Of a stretch of 33,479 bases of DNA, positions 17,857 through 24,467 are shown in pieces. The translations under genes were made by a program, and so were the position numbers. The notes under the pieces were generated by a model. It was not told the DNA's origin. It saw only the letters and a program-made list of their open reading frames with translations, and ran no database searches. The DNA comes from a virus. Lineage: Duplodnaviria > Heunggongvirae > Uroviricota > Caudoviricetes. Within the stretch, counting starts at the first letter, position 1. Each line of letters starts with the position of its first letter. The stretch spans positions 1 to 33,479 of IMG/VR virus record IMGVR_UViG_2627854066_000005. One strand, 5' to 3'.

Positions 17857-18906
17857 ATGTCTAACGATGATAAAACATTGAATTTATTCCCCATAGATTA
17901 TCCATTTGAGACTTTATGTTCTAGGATGAAGTCCAATCCCATCAAACTAAAACTGAATCCAGACTTTCAAAGAAAGTACAAATGGGATCAGGACGGATGG
18001 CTGCGATCTTCAAAATTCATTGAATCTTGTTTAATGCGTATTCCTCTTCCATCTTGTTACTTTGCAGAAGATGATAGCGGCAATCATATTGTAATTGATG
18101 GTGTTCAGCGATTAACCACAATACAGAAATTTTTTGATGACGAGTTCGCTTTGGAGGGAATGACTACATTTAAAGAGCTTGAAGGGAAAAAGTTTTCTGA
18201 ATTAGGATCTCTACGTTCAGAGTTAGAGTCGACAACAATAAGATGCATTGTTCTAAGAAAAGAAAATCCCAAAAAATTAATAAGAGAGATATTTTCTAGA
18301 CTCAATCAGGGGGCAGTTAAACTTTCTGACCAAGAAATAAGACATGCGTTATATCCGGGAGGGTTTGATGAATTATTAGAAGAGTTAGGTAATATTGATG
18401 CCATTAAAAATTTTGGTTTGGCGGAAACAACTACAGTAAAAAGAGATAGTCGTGAGCCAGACGAACAAGTTTTGCGTTTTTTTGCATTTTATGAAGATAA
18501 CTTTTTTGATTACTTTGATAGCTCCTTGAAAGAATTCTTGGATGATCATATGGAAAAATTTTCAGACTTAAAAGATGATGAACTGAATATTATGAGGGAG
18601 AGATTCAAAACATCATTATCTAAGTGTGAAAAAATATTTGGTGAAGATGTATTTACAAACCCTACAGTTAGGAGAAAACGTAAAGGGTTAGTTCATTATG
18701 ACATTTTAATGCCTACAATTGGCAAGTTAAATGATGATATTGTAAATGAAAAGTCCGAACAAATACGGAATGCTTGGTTTACTCTTTGTTCAAGTGCTGA
18801 GTTCAAAAAAACTTTATCAGGTGGGCTACAGAATAAGAGTTCGGTGATGAAGCGTAGGGCTAGTTGGGTGGCACTTCTTAAGGAAGTTATTGATGGAAAA
18901 TACTGA
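17857..18906 (+). CDS. DUF262 (ParB-like / GmrSD N-terminal-like) domain protein
   Basis: 349 aa; N-terminal region with FQRKYKW and IDGVQRL (the DGQQR-type motif of DUF262); helical C-terminal region, no HNH/DUF1524 seen. About 33% GC; inserted between S and V, which are adjacent in P2. Confidence 0.65.
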   Translation: MSNDDKTLNLFPIDYPFETLCSRMKSNPIKLKLNPDFQRKYKWDQDGWLRSSKFIESCLMRIPLPSCYFAEDDSGNHIVIDGVQRLTTIQKFFDDEFALEGMTTFKELEGKKFSELGSLRSELESTTIRCIVLRKENPKKLIREIFSRLNQGAVKLSDQEIRHALYPGGFDELLEELGNIDAIKNFGLAETTTVKRDSREPDEQVLRFFAFYEDNFFDYFDSSLKEFLDDHMEKFSDLKDDELNIMRERFKTSLSKCEKIFGEDVFTNPTVRRKRKGLVHYDILMPTIGKLNDDIVNEKSEQIRNAWFTLCSSAEFKKTLSGGLQNKSSVMKRRASWVALLKEVIDGKY

Positions 18907-19471
18907 ATACTATGATGGATATCGTTCATTATTTTTATCCTTAAAAGAAATTATTAAGGAGACGGAGCAACAGGCTATCCTTGAGGAAAATGAATTCTTC
19001 AATAAGAACATTAATTTTTTTGTTAAATCGTATCTTATTACACTCTGCACTTATTTAGAGTCGTATTTGACTGAGGTTGCAACATGGCACTGCGATACCA
19101 TCAATCGCAGGCTTAAAGCAGCCTGCTTGCCACACAATTTTTTGCTTTGGCGAGTCAAAAAAGATGTTAAAGATAAGGAGTTGAAATATATAGATGCTGA
19201 TTTAAAGGTTGAGAAAAGTGAGGTGTCGGATAGCCTGTCTGGTAATCCTTACAAGACGATTAAGGCATTTTCTTATTTGGGTGTTAATCTTTTGAATTCG
19301 GCGGAATTTAATGCGAATAAGGATGTTGTGAATGCAGTGGTTGTAAAGAGAAATAACATTATTCATCATAACGACAATGCAAATGATATTAGTCTCACTG
19401 ACGTAAGTGGTTATGTAGATCTGTTTGTATCCTATATGGCCGCGATAGATAATATGGTTTGTGGAAAATAA
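18890..19471 (+). CDS. Hypothetical partner protein, possible HEPN-like (R-x4-H) motif
   Basis: 193 aa; overlaps the upstream gene by 17 nt (same operon); KRNNIIHHND fits the R-x4-H pattern of HEPN RNases, tentative. AT-rich. Confidence 0.45.
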   Translation: MMENTEYYDGYRSLFLSLKEIIKETEQQAILEENEFFNKNINFFVKSYLITLCTYLESYLTEVATWHCDTINRRLKAACLPHNFLLWRVKKDVKDKELKYIDADLKVEKSEVSDSLSGNPYKTIKAFSYLGVNLLNSAEFNANKDVVNAVVVKRNNIIHHNDNANDISLTDVSGYVDLFVSYMAAIDNMVCGK

Positions 19472-19734
19472 TGTTTTAATATTCGTGGGGCTGTTTGATA
19501 ATTTAGCCCCATATCTGCTTTGGTAAGGGTTCGGAAAATAATTTTATATCATGATGAAATGTCTATGAGATTTATTTCATTTCTAAGTTTTGCTATTTGA
19601 TAAATCCTTTATGTGGCTCTCATTAATCTAATGGGATGAATTATACTGATATTTTAAAGCTGATAATTGTTGTTTCATCTCCCATAAAACTCCACTTGAT
19701 TGCCACTAGCCTTTCCAGTCGGCATCCTTTCCAC

Positions 19735-20376
19735 ATGAATAATTTAAATTCTTTACAGGAAATCGCTCGGGCGATCCGCAACCTTATCCGCACCGGCATT
19801 GTGACCGACGTCGACCCCGTCGAGGGGCTTTGTCGTGTACAGACCGGCGGGATGCAAACCACCTGGCTTAACTGGCTGACCTGCCGCGCCGGCCGCTCGC
19901 GGGTGTGGTGGGCTCCTTCTGTTGGCGAGCAGGTGCTCATTCTTGCCATTGGTGGCGAGCTGGACACAGCCTTTGTGCTGCCCGGCATTTTCTCTGATGA
20001 CCATCCTGCGCCGTCGGCCTCGTCCGATGCGTTTCACGTCACTTTTCCTGACGGGGCGGTTATCGAGTACGAACCCGAAAACGGGGCGCTCACCGTATCC
20101 GGTATTAAAACCGCCGACGTTACCGCGTCGGAGTCCATTACCGCCATCGTGCCGGTGGTGCTGGTGAAAGCCGAAACCCGCATTACCCTCGATACTCCCG
20201 AGGTGGTGTGTACCAACAAGCTCATCACCGGCACGCTCGAAGTGAAAAAAGGCGGGACGATGTCGGGGAACATCGAGCACACCGAAGGGAAATTTACCTC
20301 AAACGGCGTGCAGGTCGATGCCCACGATCATGGTGGCGTGGAGCCGGGCGGAAACTGGACGAAGGGGGTCAAATGA
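19735..20376 (+). CDS. V: Baseplate spike / assembly protein V
   Basis: Start MNNLNSLQEIARAIRNLIRTG; ...WWAPSVGEQVLILAIGGELDTAFVLPGIF... resembles P2 V; 213 aa versus 211. Confidence 0.85.
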   Translation: MNNLNSLQEIARAIRNLIRTGIVTDVDPVEGLCRVQTGGMQTTWLNWLTCRAGRSRVWWAPSVGEQVLILAIGGELDTAFVLPGIFSDDHPAPSASSDAFHVTFPDGAVIEYEPENGALTVSGIKTADVTASESITAIVPVVLVKAETRITLDTPEVVCTNKLITGTLEVKKGGTMSGNIEHTEGKFTSNGVQVDAHDHGGVEPGGNWTKGVK

Positions 20377-22171: not shown

Positions 22172-23857
22172 ATGACAGTGAAATATAAAACCGTTATCAC
22201 CCGAGCCGGTGCGGAAAAACTGGCGGCGGCGACGCTCCCGAACGGGAAGAAAGTCAATTTTGCTGTGATGGCCGTCGGGGACGGCGGCGGAAAACTGCCC
22301 GAACCGGACGCCAGCCAGACAAAACTCGTCAATGAGGTCTGGCGTCATGTCCTGAACAAAATCAGCCAGGACAAAAAACATAAAAATTATGTCGTGGCGG
22401 AGCTGGTGATCCCCCCGGAGACCGGCGGTTTCTGGCTGCGTGAAATGGGGCTTTACGATGACACCGGCACGCTGATTGCGGTCGGCAATATGGCCGAAAG
22501 CTACAAACCCGAGCTGGCGGAAGGATCAGGTCGTGCGCAGACGCTGCGTATGGTGATCATGGTGAGTGATATCGACACGGTCGAGTTGTCCATCGATACC
22601 ACGCTGGTGATGGCGACGCAGGATTATGTCGACGACAAACTCGCAGAGCATGAGCAGTCCCGCCGCCATCCTGACGCCACGCTGAAAGAAAAAGGGTTCA
22701 CGCAGTTAAGCAGTGCGACCGACAGCACGTCTGAGGCGCTCGCCGCGACACCGAAAGCGGTTAAGGCGGCGTATGACCTTGCGAAAGGTAAATACTCGGC
22801 TCAGGACGCGACCACGGCGCAGAAAGGGATTGTTCAGCTCAGTAGCGCCATCGACAGCGTGTCTGAGACGCTCGCCGCAACGCCAAAAGCGGTGAAAGCG
22901 GCGAATGATAATGCTGATGGCCGCGTTCCTTCCTCGCGCAAAATTAACGGACACTCCCTGAATGCTGACACCAGTGTCACCTCGCAGGATATTTTCGACG
23001 ACCAGGCTATTGGGCTGGTAACGGAGGATTTAGACACCCTTAAAACGCCGGGTATTTACTTTCAGCCAGCGAATTCTAATACCTCAGCCGCCAGACATTA
23101 CCCTGAAAATAACGCCGGGACGCTGGTCATTTATAAAAATGCCGGAGTGACTCAGGTATACCGGGTTTATAACAGCTCCCGGAGCTACTCGCGCAGCCAG
23201 TATTCAACAGGCGCATGGACACCGTGGACGCCTGATGATGTTTTTCCGGTAGGCGCTCCCGTTGCGTGGCCGTCTGACAGTGTTCCTGCTGGCTATGCCG
23301 TCATGCAGGGACAAACTTTTGATAAAGCCGCGTATCCGCTGCTTGCTGTGGTGTACCCATCGGGTGTTATTCCTGATATGCGGGGCTGGACAATCAAAGG
23401 TAAACCCGCAAGTGGGCGCGCTATTTTGTCTCAGGAGCAGGACGGCATTAAATCGCACGCCCACGGTGCCAGCGCATCGAGCACCGATTTAGGGACGAAA
23501 ACCACCAGTGCTTTTGACCACGGAACGAAAACCACCACGACCTTTGACTACGGGACAAAAACCACTAATGCAACCGGCAACCATGCGCACACTTTTACCG
23601 TACACCGGGGAGATCAGGCCGGGGGACAGGCCGCCGACGGTAACGAAATAGCGACGGGAACGAAAACAACATCAACTGCAGGTAATCACGCGCATACCGT
23701 GGCGATTGGTGCCCACAATCATAATGTCGGGATTGGCGCACACTCGCACTCCGTTGCTATTGGCGCACACGGTCACACCATTACGATCGCCGCGTCGGGT
23801 AATGCAGAAAACACCATCAAAAACATCGCCTTTAACTATATCGTGAGACTCGCATAA
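22172..23857 (+). CDS. H: Tail fiber protein H
   Basis: 561 aa; conserved N-terminus ([22 protein letters not shown]...); internal 42-aa duplicated [16 protein letters not shown] segment; C-terminal GTKTT and HxH repeat region. Confidence 0.85.
23705..23785. repeat. Three tandem 27-bp coding repeats (IGAHxHxVx) inside H
   Basis: attggtgcccac / attggcgcacac / attggcgcacac begin at 23705, 23732 and 23759; they encode [27 protein letters not shown]. Confidence 0.6.
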
Positions 23858-24435
23858 TGACGTTTAAAATGACCGGAGAAAGCCGGACTATCACTGTGTA
23901 TAACTTTCGTGCAGACACCTGTGAATTTATTGGAAAAGGTGACGCCCTGATACCGGCATTTACCGGATTGCCCGCCTGCTGCACCAGTGAAAAGCCCCCG
24001 GAAACCCGAGACGGATTTATTCCGGTTTATGACACTGAAAATGGTTGCTGGGCTATCACTGAAGACCACCGGGGTGAGGTTGTCTATGACACCGAAACAG
24101 GTCATGAGAGGGAGATAACCGAGCCGGGTCAGTATCCGGCAGGAACAACACCGGTTGTGCCGGAAAACCCGTGGCAGAAATGGGATGGTAAAACATGGGT
24201 TGATGATGCTGATGCTGCACGTAATGCATTGACAGAGGCTGCGAAAAACAACAAAAACAGGCTTCTTAAACAGGCCAATACTGCGGTTGCGACATTACAG
24301 GACTCCGTTGATCTGGAGATGGCAACCGACGATGAAAAAACGCACCTCATTGCATGGAAAAAATACCGTGTTTTACTGAGCCGCATCCAGCCGGAGGATG
24401 CTCCGGATATTGAATGGCCGCCGCTGCCAGTCTGA
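23857..24435 (+). CDS. G: Tail fiber assembly chaperone G
   Basis: 192 aa immediately after H; position and size as for P2 G (175 aa). Confidence 0.7.
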   Translation: MTFKMTGESRTITVYNFRADTCEFIGKGDALIPAFTGLPACCTSEKPPETRDGFIPVYDTENGCWAITEDHRGEVVYDTETGHEREITEPGQYPAGTTPVVPENPWQKWDGKTWVDDADAARNALTEAAKNNKNRLLKQANTAVATLQDSVDLEMATDDEKTHLIAWKKYRVLLSRIQPEDAPDIEWPPLPV

Positions 24436-24445
24436 TCCGACATCT

Positions 24446-24467
24446 GGCGGGCAGTTGCCCGCCTTTT
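24446..24467 (+). terminator. Intrinsic terminator after G
   Basis: GGCGGGC-agtt-GCCCGCC followed by TTTT, 11 nt after the G stop. Confidence 0.5.

Follow-up and report, generated by a model that had tools for sequence, protein, structure and literature searches.

The stretch of viral DNA analysed here, referred to as the window, is 33,479 nucleotides long and carries on its plus strand the tail fibre gene H (22172..23857), a reading frame of 561 aa identified from the ORF list and by Pfam. The protein begins with a P2-type N-terminal anchor (aa 1-151; Pfam Phage_tail_fib, PF12571, 1.1e-55), continues with two Phage_fiber_2 repeats (Pfam, 2.1e-37) and ends in a tip of the T4 gp37 type, with a knob region at aa ~244-356 between the repeats and the tip. 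With the collar and needle limits of T4 gp37 taken from the literature (PMC6957217) and the alignment to 2XGF, the tip divides, all on the plus strand, into the N-terminal part of the Collar domain (23240..23452, aa 357-427, corresponding to residues 812-881 of gp37 D10), an outgoing needle strand (23453..23590, aa 428-473), a head (tip) loop (23591..23686, aa 474-505), a returning needle strand (23687..23803, aa 506-544) and the C-terminal part of the Collar together with the stop codon (23804..23857, aa 545-561, corresponding to gp37 residues 1010-1026). Pfam recognises the Collar at aa 361-408 (2.1e-09). The C-terminal part of the Collar is the best-conserved segment of the tip, with an entropy of 0.40 bits, and the end of the protein ([11 protein letters not shown]), which aligns to 2XGF, is nearly invariant among relatives. 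The exact H protein was found on more than 1000 contigs, and about 0.7% of complete E. coli genomes contain a P2-like prophage with this tip; the collection of homologous proteins omitted H's own cluster, and its best match of 79% reflects this limit of the collection and not biology.

Directly behind H lies gene G (23857..24435, plus strand, 192 aa), a tail fibre assembly chaperone gene of the gp38/Tfa type (Pfam Caudo_TAP, 4.6e-36), whose ATG, read from the sequence, overlaps the stop codon of H in the string TAATG. In tblastn the whole of G aligns with T4 gene 38 (25% identity, E 4e-8); identity is 45% with lambda Tfa and 50% with the Tfa of phiNP, while P2's own G matches only aa 125-191, the last ~65 aa. 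In a P2-like phage, an 80-kb myovirus and a T4-like phage alike, the gene for the tip has the chaperone gene next to it. Folding of the H tip would need the gp38/Tfa-type chaperone that G, translationally coupled to H, would provide.

The repeats that had been pointed out in the preliminary description (GTKTT, GNHAHT and a 27-bp array encoding IGAHxH) are all present in the plus-strand reading frame of H, with some corrections to their layout. GTKTT occurs four times (aa 441, 451, 461 and 496; nt 23492, 23522, 23552 and 23657), as claimed, yet the unit is GTKTT followed by five residues (10 aa, 30 bp) and not by four, and only three copies are in tandem (nt 23492-23581), all on the outgoing strand; the fourth (nt 23657-23671) is 35 aa downstream, on the returning strand and within the interval assigned to the head loop. 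GNHAHT occurs at aa 469-474 and 504-509. The three V-x-IGAHxHx units (nt 23699, 23726 and 23753) do keep an exact 27-bp period, and when the preceding STAGNHAHT unit is counted the returning strand has four HxH motifs at an exact spacing of 9 aa (aa 506-533). In total H has six HxH motifs, at aa 429-431 and 471-473 at the two ends of the outgoing strand and starting at aa 506, 515, 524 and 533 on the returning one; the 429-431 motif (SHAHG, nt 23456-23464) lies just upstream of where the region was originally taken to begin. Shuffling the whole of H 100,000 times gave a mean of 0.67 HxH motifs and only one shuffle that reached six, and shuffling the His-rich stretch aa 425-545 alone gave six in 70 of 100,000. 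It should be stressed that the repeats are exact in period only and not in DNA, identity being 59-74% between the 27-bp units and 60-80% between the 30-bp units. Tandem Repeats Finder (TRF) detected the 30-bp array (score 93) and at a score of at least 30 did not report the 27-bp array, a second repeat search of the window returned the 30-nt family only, and the longest exact direct repeat within 23400-23860 is 13 nt.

A phmmer search against the PDB aligned H residues 357-561 with the crystal structure of the T4 gp37 receptor-binding tip (2xgf_A, chain 28-242; E=1.3e-73); over these 205 aa the two are 61% identical, a degree of similarity that, at the level of sequence, is true homology and not analogy. 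The earlier proposal of a gp37-like, His-lined needle with tip exchange thus holds in its central part and had in fact been understated, given the homology to 2XGF, the conservation of the HxH motifs and the mosaicism described below. We conclude, with a probability of about 0.9, that the last 205 residues of H are a T4 gp37-type receptor-binding tip carried on a P2-type fibre, with a trimer and metal ions predicted by homology and a receptor that is presumed. An AlphaFold2 monomer model built on a 56-sequence alignment is confident in the collar and poor in the needle (pLDDT about 50-58), and in Foldseek this low-confidence model has 2xgf_A as its sole significant PDB match (E 9.4e-15, TM 0.34, rmsd 11 Å); the model adds nothing to the sequence match. 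Common to H and T4 gp37 (whose collar is domain D10 and whose needle and head are D11) are the collar, both needle strands, the ladder of HxH motifs, the C-terminal end and the neighbouring gp38-type chaperone gene. They differ in the number of HxH motifs (six in H, seven in gp37) and in their spacing, which is 42,35,9,9,9 in H and 32,14,37,14,9,9 in gp37: H is without the paired 14-aa rung of gp37 (T4 H915 and the 966-to-980 spacing) and has one 10-aa/9-aa rung more. The fibre that carries the tip also differs, being a P2-type protein of 561 aa in one case and the 1026-aa gp37 in the other.

In T4 gp37 the HxH motifs are at residues 883, 915, 929, 966, 980, 989 and 998, and the tip holds seven iron ions (PMC6957217, PMC6116203, PMC12609058). 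Six of these seven sites are retained in H, the 915 site being the one that is missing. All 12 histidines of the HxH motifs are invariant among 56 relatives, which argues that each metal site is used, and the Gly two residues ahead of the motif is invariant for five of the six. By homology to gp37, then, three H chains would leave the collar, run outward along a six-stranded needle, turn in a small head and come back to the collar, the return of the extreme C-terminus being read from 2XGF. Each HxH contributed by the three chains would place six histidines around one buried metal ion with octahedral coordination (Fe(II) in T4), and as there is one ion per HxH triplet in the needle the H fibre should hold six ions compared to the seven of T4. 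The predicted places are one by the collar (H429/431), one by the head on the outgoing side (H471/473) and four along the returning strand (H506-535), and the ions may act as registration and stiffening points in the folding of the trimer. One relative (P0009) has a Tyr in place of one ligand His, however, which suggests that not every HxH site need be essential.

The head loop stands apart from the rest of the tip in its variability. Entropy across aa 474-505 is 2.49 bits, compared to 0.4-1.1 elsewhere in the tip; variants inside the 90% cluster concentrate at aa 467-505; 126 relatives have 65 distinct head-loop sequences; and it is here that nucleotide identity to a sister prophage is lowest, at 44%. 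Alanine substitution of any of ten residues in the T4 tip kills plaque formation (PMC6957217), and in the 2XGF alignment two His and three Gly of these ten are kept in H, whereas at the other five, I933, N937, G940, S947 and Y949 of T4, H has F, R, Q, D and N. The loop is 26% identical to that of gp37, and its identity to the loops of T4, lambda Stf and phiNP ranges over 24-34%. Residues 474-505 are the presumed receptor-contact region, and this hypervariable loop would contact the receptor, perhaps the LPS core or a porin, and set the host range.

That the tip was acquired by exchange, as had been suggested, agrees with a shared module boundary, with the differing N-terminal carriers and with a swap of needle and head in a sister prophage. 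Homologous HSPs start at H aa 320-379 in 227 of 264 cases, and the N-terminal partners of the tip differ among its carriers, being of the P2, lambda Stf and T4 types. The sister E. coli prophage is 90-100% identical to the present one up to nt ~23370 and only 44-73% identical across 23432-23791 and, judging from this alignment, what it has exchanged is precisely the cassette of needle and head; the two would be passed among phages as one unit. Base composition was considered as further evidence of transfer and set aside, since the slightly lower GC content of distal H and of G (0.50-0.55 vs ~0.58) is too weak a signal. Older work on 'His box' recombination in T-even phages exists and is not used as evidence here; our literature search on 'GXHXH' or His-box recombination found nothing in the texts it covered.

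The spacing of the HxH motifs in 245 relatives follows a simple rule, namely a first gap of 32+10k, an optional gap of 14, the loop, another optional 14 and then (2+k) gaps of 9, which 240 of the 245 obey, whereas permutation would give about 119. The optional 14-aa rung never occurs on one strand alone (245/245), and unpaired forms of the needle repeats are essentially absent from the family. The outgoing 10-aa GTKTT units may accordingly be the partners of the returning 9-aa IGAHxH units, a partnering whose basis is the covariation of copy number among related, non-independent sequences and not coordinates. We consider it an even chance that the two repeats are the halves of one structural ruler, so that needle length changes only by paired units and variants arise through cassette exchange. 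Were this so, one outgoing 10-aa unit ([10 protein letters not shown]) and one returning 9-aa unit (V-x-I-G-A-H-x-H-x) would be gained or lost together, and the optional symmetric 14/14 rung would add to the changes in length. Because the paired sites are 70-100 codons apart, single slippage events could not yield viable variants; variation in needle length would instead require cassette exchange, and the needle and head swap in the sister prophage indicates that such exchange does happen. A qualitative remark that the number of di-His motifs scales with needle length has been made (PMC12609058), and an explicit pairing rule was not found in the literature searched; the 2010 structure paper (Bartual et al.) may contain it implicitly.

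The tandem repeats had also been taken to make the tip prone to slippage, and from there one could view the 27-bp and 30-bp arrays as a contingency locus in which slippage or unequal crossing-over often varies fibre length and host range within the lineage. The arrays are in frame and exact in period, and the wider family does differ in repeat number, from 4 to 9 HxH. At the DNA level, however, the units have diverged to 59-80% identity with much of the difference at third codon positions, no exact repeat exceeds 13 nt and TRF misses the 27-bp array. The tip has the same length of 618 bp in all 36 complete E. coli genomes that carry it at ≥99% identity; the variation in repeat number expected among close relatives did not appear in the 90% cluster, where every length variant maps to the head loop; and the up/down pairing kept by 240 of 245 relatives would be lost if only one strand changed. 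Slippage-proneness is thus not borne out, and a contingency locus is extremely improbable. Decay of the fibre is another matter, as decay is seen in some relatives, for instance in strain OkiPb01710, whose H homologue is split and bears a pseudogene annotation, and the tip might likewise be the relic of a defective prophage whose fibre no longer works. Against this, H and G are both unbroken here and coupled in translation, H has all of its ligand histidines, the V, W, J, I, sheath, tube and tape-measure genes nearby are likewise intact, and the same protein recurs unchanged on its >1000 contigs, so that we regard a relic as very unlikely.

Two further alternatives concern the metal. With the fold unchanged, the sites could hold another metal such as Zn or Ni, or be partly empty, with the His ladder serving mainly as a packing motif and not as an iron ladder. 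Zinc was present in the crystals of T4 gp12, a protein with a related collar and HxH, and was modelled in its HxH site after refolding in a zinc salt (PMC6116203), and the Tyr of P0009 shows that one HxH site tolerates the loss of a His. Nevertheless, iron is the ligand observed by experiment in the closest homologue, 2XGF (61% identity), it is also found in the HxH sites of P2 gpV and of the R-pyocin fibre (PMC6116203), and the invariance of 12/12 histidines in 56 relatives argues against empty sites; we consider this alternative unlikely. For fibres bearing HxH motifs a 'Ferrojan horse' hypothesis has been published (PMC11705849), in which the iron of the fibre is itself the ligand, shown to the host to hijack a siderophore receptor. 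The ions of 2XGF-type needles are, however, buried on the three-fold axis (PMC6116203, PMC12609058), the surface that varies and has been mapped functionally is that of the head loop, whose ligand in T4, lambda and phiNP is LPS or OmpC (PMC6957217, PMC12617516, PMC9659904), and nothing at the H locus points to a TonB-dependent receptor, which leaves this idea with almost no credibility here. We retain the reading of a gp37-type receptor-binding tip on a P2-type fibre.

The finding leaves the current understanding of phage fibres unchanged; what it provides is a solved template (2XGF) and a domain map for the host-range determinant of a P2-like prophage that is common in E. coli. The map marks 32 residues to swap for retargeting particles, the paired-rung rule is a practical design constraint when fibre length is engineered, and the tip has to be moved together with its chaperone G. 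The tip family, its linkage to a chaperone and its P2-type carriers are already published, and the module is well known and widely swapped. H fits the definition of the 'T4- and lambda-based RBP family' of Magaziner and Salmond 2022 (PMC9659904), in which the last ~215 aa are gp37-homologous, with divergence focused on the specificity region and a neighbouring gp38/Tfa-like gene, and which occurs in temperate and lytic enteric phages. An example is ORF6 of Citrobacter phage phiNP with its gp38-like ORF5, which has the identical HxH architecture (42,34,9,9,9), 74% identity in the module and 50% in the chaperone. The head loop is only 34% identical to that of phiNP, so that the LPS Glc-II receptor reported for phiNP is not transferable to H, and the N-terminal anchor of H is of the P2 type, unlike that of phiNP. 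Lambda Stf (the orf-314 part) with Tfa is related in the same way, at 58% identity in the C-terminal module and 45% in the chaperone; Stf is structurally homologous to gp37 and binds OmpC (PMC12617516), but it has eight HxH motifs (42,14,48,14,9,9,9), a longer head loop of 45 aa and a different N-terminal anchor (Pfam phage_tail_N).

P2 gpH shares with H the N-terminal baseplate-anchoring domain and the fibre repeats (Pfam), with ~76% nucleotide identity over the first ~600 nt, and the gene order V-W-J-I-H-G-FI-FII is the same as in P2. Records of the P2 group match H only in its first ~600-730 nt, however, about nt 9-606 being the matched part, and the distal part is not P2-like; the mutagenesis of the P2-like fibre of P88/pro147 (PMC5285337) deals with another distal domain, of the P2 type, and has no bearing on the H tip. 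A PDB sequence search with H gave no match to pyocin fibres. The principle of three chains and an HxH forming an octahedral His6 site on the axis is nevertheless common to the shaft of the R-type pyocin fibre, the apex of P2 gpV and T4 gp12 (PMC6116203), and the collar fold of gp12 is shared by the monomer model (Foldseek 1ocy, prob 0.96 over 60 columns). These three proteins have a single HxH site each, whereas H has a ladder of them.

The element is a P2-like prophage. The genes around H (22172..23857, + strand, a 561-codon ORF with the reported repeats in its 3' quarter) run V, W, J, I (baseplate), H, G, sheath, tube, tape-measure chaperones and tape measure. E. coli strain KV7 carries the stretch at 100% identity, and the exact H protein, annotated by NCBI as 'phage tail protein' only, occurs in more than 1000 contigs. 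Pfam makes H a tail fibre of P2 type by its N-terminal domain, Phage_tail_fib (aa 1-151, E 1.1e-55), and also matches Phage_fiber_2 twice and Collar once (aa 361-408). The downstream gene G (23857..24435, + strand, 192 codons; Pfam Caudo_TAP tail-fibre assembly protein) shares one base with H, the sequence reading TAATG at 23855-23859. For H aa ~244-356 (22901-23239), which separates the fibre repeats from the collar, neither Pfam nor the PDB gave a sequence match, and its DNA is common only to Enterobacter phage ENT4, whose 80.7% identity extends as far as query nt 1010; a knob or shaft domain is probable here. A two-gene cargo (+ strand) is inserted after the tail-completion genes and before V; in it a GmrSD_N/DUF262 gene (17857-18906; PADLOC NsnA, E 6.6e-80, and PD-T4-2_A, E 9.5e-43) is overlapped by one for a RiboL-PSP HEPN protein (18890-19471; Pfam E 1e-17). 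The pair, at 17857-19471, is probably an anti-phage defence system in a P2-like hotspot.

The preliminary description of 23480-23800 had listed GTKTT units, two GNHAHT motifs and three 27-bp repeats encoding IGAHxH, and this observation is confirmed with small corrections. Translation places GNHAHT at aa 469-474 and 504-509, and GTKTT at aa 441, 451, 461 and 496, so all four copies are present, only three of them in tandem and with a unit of 10 aa (GTKTT plus five residues) rather than GTKTT plus four. The three V-x-IGAHxHx units start at nt 23699, 23726 and 23753 with an exact period, and their count extends, as the preceding STAGNHAHT gives four paired-histidine (HxH) motifs spaced by exactly 9 aa (aa 506, 515, 524 and 533). 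A sixth HxH, SHAHG (aa 429-431, nt 23456), had been missed just before 23480; H has six HxH compared to 0.67 expected, a number reached in 1 of 100,000 protein shuffles. At the DNA level exactness is limited to the period: identity among units is 59-74% in the 27-bp array and 60-80% in the 30-bp array, and the longest exact direct repeat in the region is 13 nt. Tandem Repeats Finder reported the 30-bp array, the 27-bp array was absent from its output, and a separate repeat search agrees.

A PDB sequence search with whole H gave one outstanding match, 2XGF (E = 1.3e-73), the crystal structure of phage T4's long-tail-fibre (gp37) receptor-binding tip, with H 357-561 and chain residues 28-242 aligned end to end at 61% identity over 205 residues. 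The comparison with T4 gp37 made at the outset is therefore one of homology, not analogy. The fold of this tip and its iron ladder (2XGF) were reportedly solved in 2010. An AlphaFold2 monomer model from 56 sequences had a mean pLDDT of 62.7, with a confident collar and a needle at about 50-58, as would be expected of an obligate intertwined trimer; a Foldseek search of the PDB with this model put 2xgf_A at the top (E 9.4e-15, probability 1.00), although its TM was 0.34. Transferring the gp37 domain limits (collar D10, 811-881 plus 1010-1026; needle and head D11, 882-1009; PMC6957217) puts the collar of H at aa 357-427 plus 545-561, the outgoing needle strand at 428-473, the head loop at 474-505 and the returning strand at 506-544.

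Seven iron ions lie along the T4 gp37 needle, and three chains contribute their HxH to the octahedral coordination of each (PMC6957217, PMC6116203, PMC12609058). The T4 tip region contains exactly seven HxH, at 883, 915, 929, 966, 980, 989 and 998, which equals the number of ions reported, and in the alignment H keeps six of them, without an equivalent of H915/H917. Across H and 55 relatives all twelve HxH histidines are invariant, as is the Gly two residues before the motif for five of the six HxH. On the strength of 61% identity to a solved structure, we predict that H forms a trimer with metal sites. In P0009 (E. coli, 328 aa), which is a natural variant of the closest tip relative, one returning-strand HxH reads IGAYNHT, with Tyr for its first His; this is either a sequencing error or one metal site whose loss is tolerated. 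The baseplate spike gpV (19735-20376, + strand), a close homologue of P2 gpV (3QR8, E 7.9e-98), keeps its apex HxH (nt 20323-20331, 'AHDHG', aligned to P2 'THKHP', the iron site of the 'iron-loaded spike'), and would therefore supply a second kind of HxH metal site in the virion; gene callers place its start at 19636 (246 aa) or 19735 (213 aa).

As the needle interpretation had implied, the HxH spacing recurs in homologous fibres. We parsed 245 relatives, drawn from the 120 nearest proteins in the database and 147 proteins that represent 50%-identity clusters, and 240 follow a common pattern: a first gap of 32 + 10k, an optional 14, a head loop of 32-70 aa, an optional 14, and 2 + k gaps of exactly 9, where k = 0, 1, 2 and 4 were seen, each with the matching count of 9-aa units. 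About 119 would be expected when the two counts are permuted, and 240 was reached in 0 of 10,000 permutations, a figure that overstates independence as the sequences are related. The optional 14-aa rung is present on both strands or neither in 245/245, and the five exceptions comprise one His-to-Tyr point variant, two first gaps of 41 instead of 42, and two sequences without one outgoing HxH. All six distinct architectures are paired, none unpaired, and the class of H is the commonest (142/245). Its spacing is 42, 35, 9, 9, 9 (6 HxH); that of phiNP ORF6 is 42, 34, 9, 9, 9 (6 HxH), of T4 gp37 32, 14, 37, 14, 9, 9 (7 HxH) and of lambda Stf 42, 14, 48, 14, 9, 9, 9 (8 HxH). A gp37-type chain runs out to the head and then back, giving a six-stranded needle, and it has been noted that the number of di-histidines varies with needle length (PMC12609058). 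Most simply read, every outgoing 10-aa unit of GTKTT type would lie alongside one returning 9-aa IGAHxH unit, which would explain why both repeats exist and change number together.

The further suggestion that tandem DNA repeats make the tip prone to slippage was rejected. The units have diverged, much of the difference falling at third codon positions; the tip is found at at least 99% identity in 36 complete genomes, with a length of exactly 618 bp in each; and comparison of close H C-termini, which had been proposed as a check, found no repeat-number variant within H's 90%-identity cluster. Slippage also fails because a change in one strand alone would break the pairing rule. The rest of that interpretation, a metal-binding needle possibly acquired by exchange, is supported by the 2XGF homology, the conserved HxH and mosaicism.

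Tip exchange is supported by varied N-terminal partners and, most tellingly, by a sister prophage in E. coli GPT24-02 (NZ_OZ282453.1). Its H is 90-100% identical to nt ~23370, then 44-73% over 23432-23791, lowest (44%) within the head loop at 23612-23671, and identity is back to 78-95% from the C-terminal collar through G. Its HxH architecture is the same (42,34,9,9,9), and the swapped segment almost exactly coincides with the 23480-23800 region. Judged from the two sequences, this locus represents a cassette-sized replacement of needle and head inside a gp37-like module. Among phages, near-identity DNA matches reach no further than the initial 600-1010 nt of H and come from P2-like phages in every case; as protein, the tip occurs in 451 records of phages, among them side tail fibres of lambdoid phages, gp37 of T4-like ones and some fibres of P2-like ones. 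Homologous alignments reaching the C-terminus start at H aa 320-379 in 227 of 264, and N-terminal partners among 74 diverse tip carriers include Phage_tail_fib (16), gp37_C (14), Gp34_trimer (7) and the phage_tail_N of lambda Stf (5). Needles with 5, 6 and 7 HxH are all found with P2-type N-termini, and in complete E. coli genomes the P2-type N-terminus is present in 534, the whole H-G module in 37 only. At a locus in E. coli OkiPb01710 (NZ_AP042666.1, 2501-4633), H is 93% identical for its first 731 nt, after which comes an unrelated distal part with a 'pyocin knob domain'; the assembly protein differs as well, and the fragments of H are annotated as pseudogenes. Several 50%-cluster tip carriers (e.g. 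P0174, 1599 aa) also match terminase, portal, tape-measure or capsid Pfam families, probably through gene fusions or wrong gene calls in the assemblies. GC falls to 0.50-0.51 in the end of H and in G (23700-24450), the values for proximal H and the sheath gene being 0.55-0.58 and 0.57; this fits, weakly, a separate origin of the distal module.

Over its residues 11-188, G aligns with T4 gene 38 at 25% identity (E 4e-8), and it is 45% identical to lambda Tfa and 50% to phiNP Tfa, whereas P2's own G matches only its residues 125-191. Tip and chaperone travel together, since their matches adjoin in three unrelated phages (P2-like ESSI2_ev015, the 80-kb myovirus Ro157c2YLVW and T4-like VR7) and gp37 folding requires gp38 (PMC6957217).

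Column entropy over 216 non-redundant relatives is 2.49 bits in the head loop; the other segments are lower, with 0.66 for the collar, 0.87 and 1.09 for the outgoing and returning strands, and 0.40 for the C-terminus. Within H's 90%-identity cluster, nearly all distal-half substitutions and all length differences (560-567 aa) fall within aa 467-505. Alanine scanning of T4 found H929, H931, I933, N937, G938, G940, G942, G943, S947 and Y949 to be essential (PMC6957217); by alignment to 2XGF, H keeps two His and three Gly of these ten, the remaining five being replaced by F, R, Q, D and N. The receptors are OmpC/LPS for T4 (PMC6957217), OmpC for lambda Stf (PMC12617516) and LPS Glc-II for phiNP (PMC9659904), and the head loop of H is 26%, 24% and 34% identical to theirs, respectively. 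The receptor of H is likely an outer-membrane one of the general OmpC/LPS kind, loop identities of 24-34% not singling out which.

The family described by Magaziner and Salmond in 2022 has its last ~215 aa like gp37, diverges at the specificity region, carries an adjacent gp38/Tfa-like chaperone and spans more than 200 enteric phages, temperate and lytic (PMC9659904); the relationship of lambda Stf to gp37 and its OmpC binding are also published (PMC12617516). Neither the paired-rung rule nor the fine-scale cassette swap was found stated in the literature covered, the 2010 T4 structure paper lying outside that coverage. H is an uncharacterised but typical member of the T4/lambda receptor-binding protein family of Magaziner and Salmond, to which an explicit paired-rung rule and a fine-scale swap of the needle/head cassette are modest additions.
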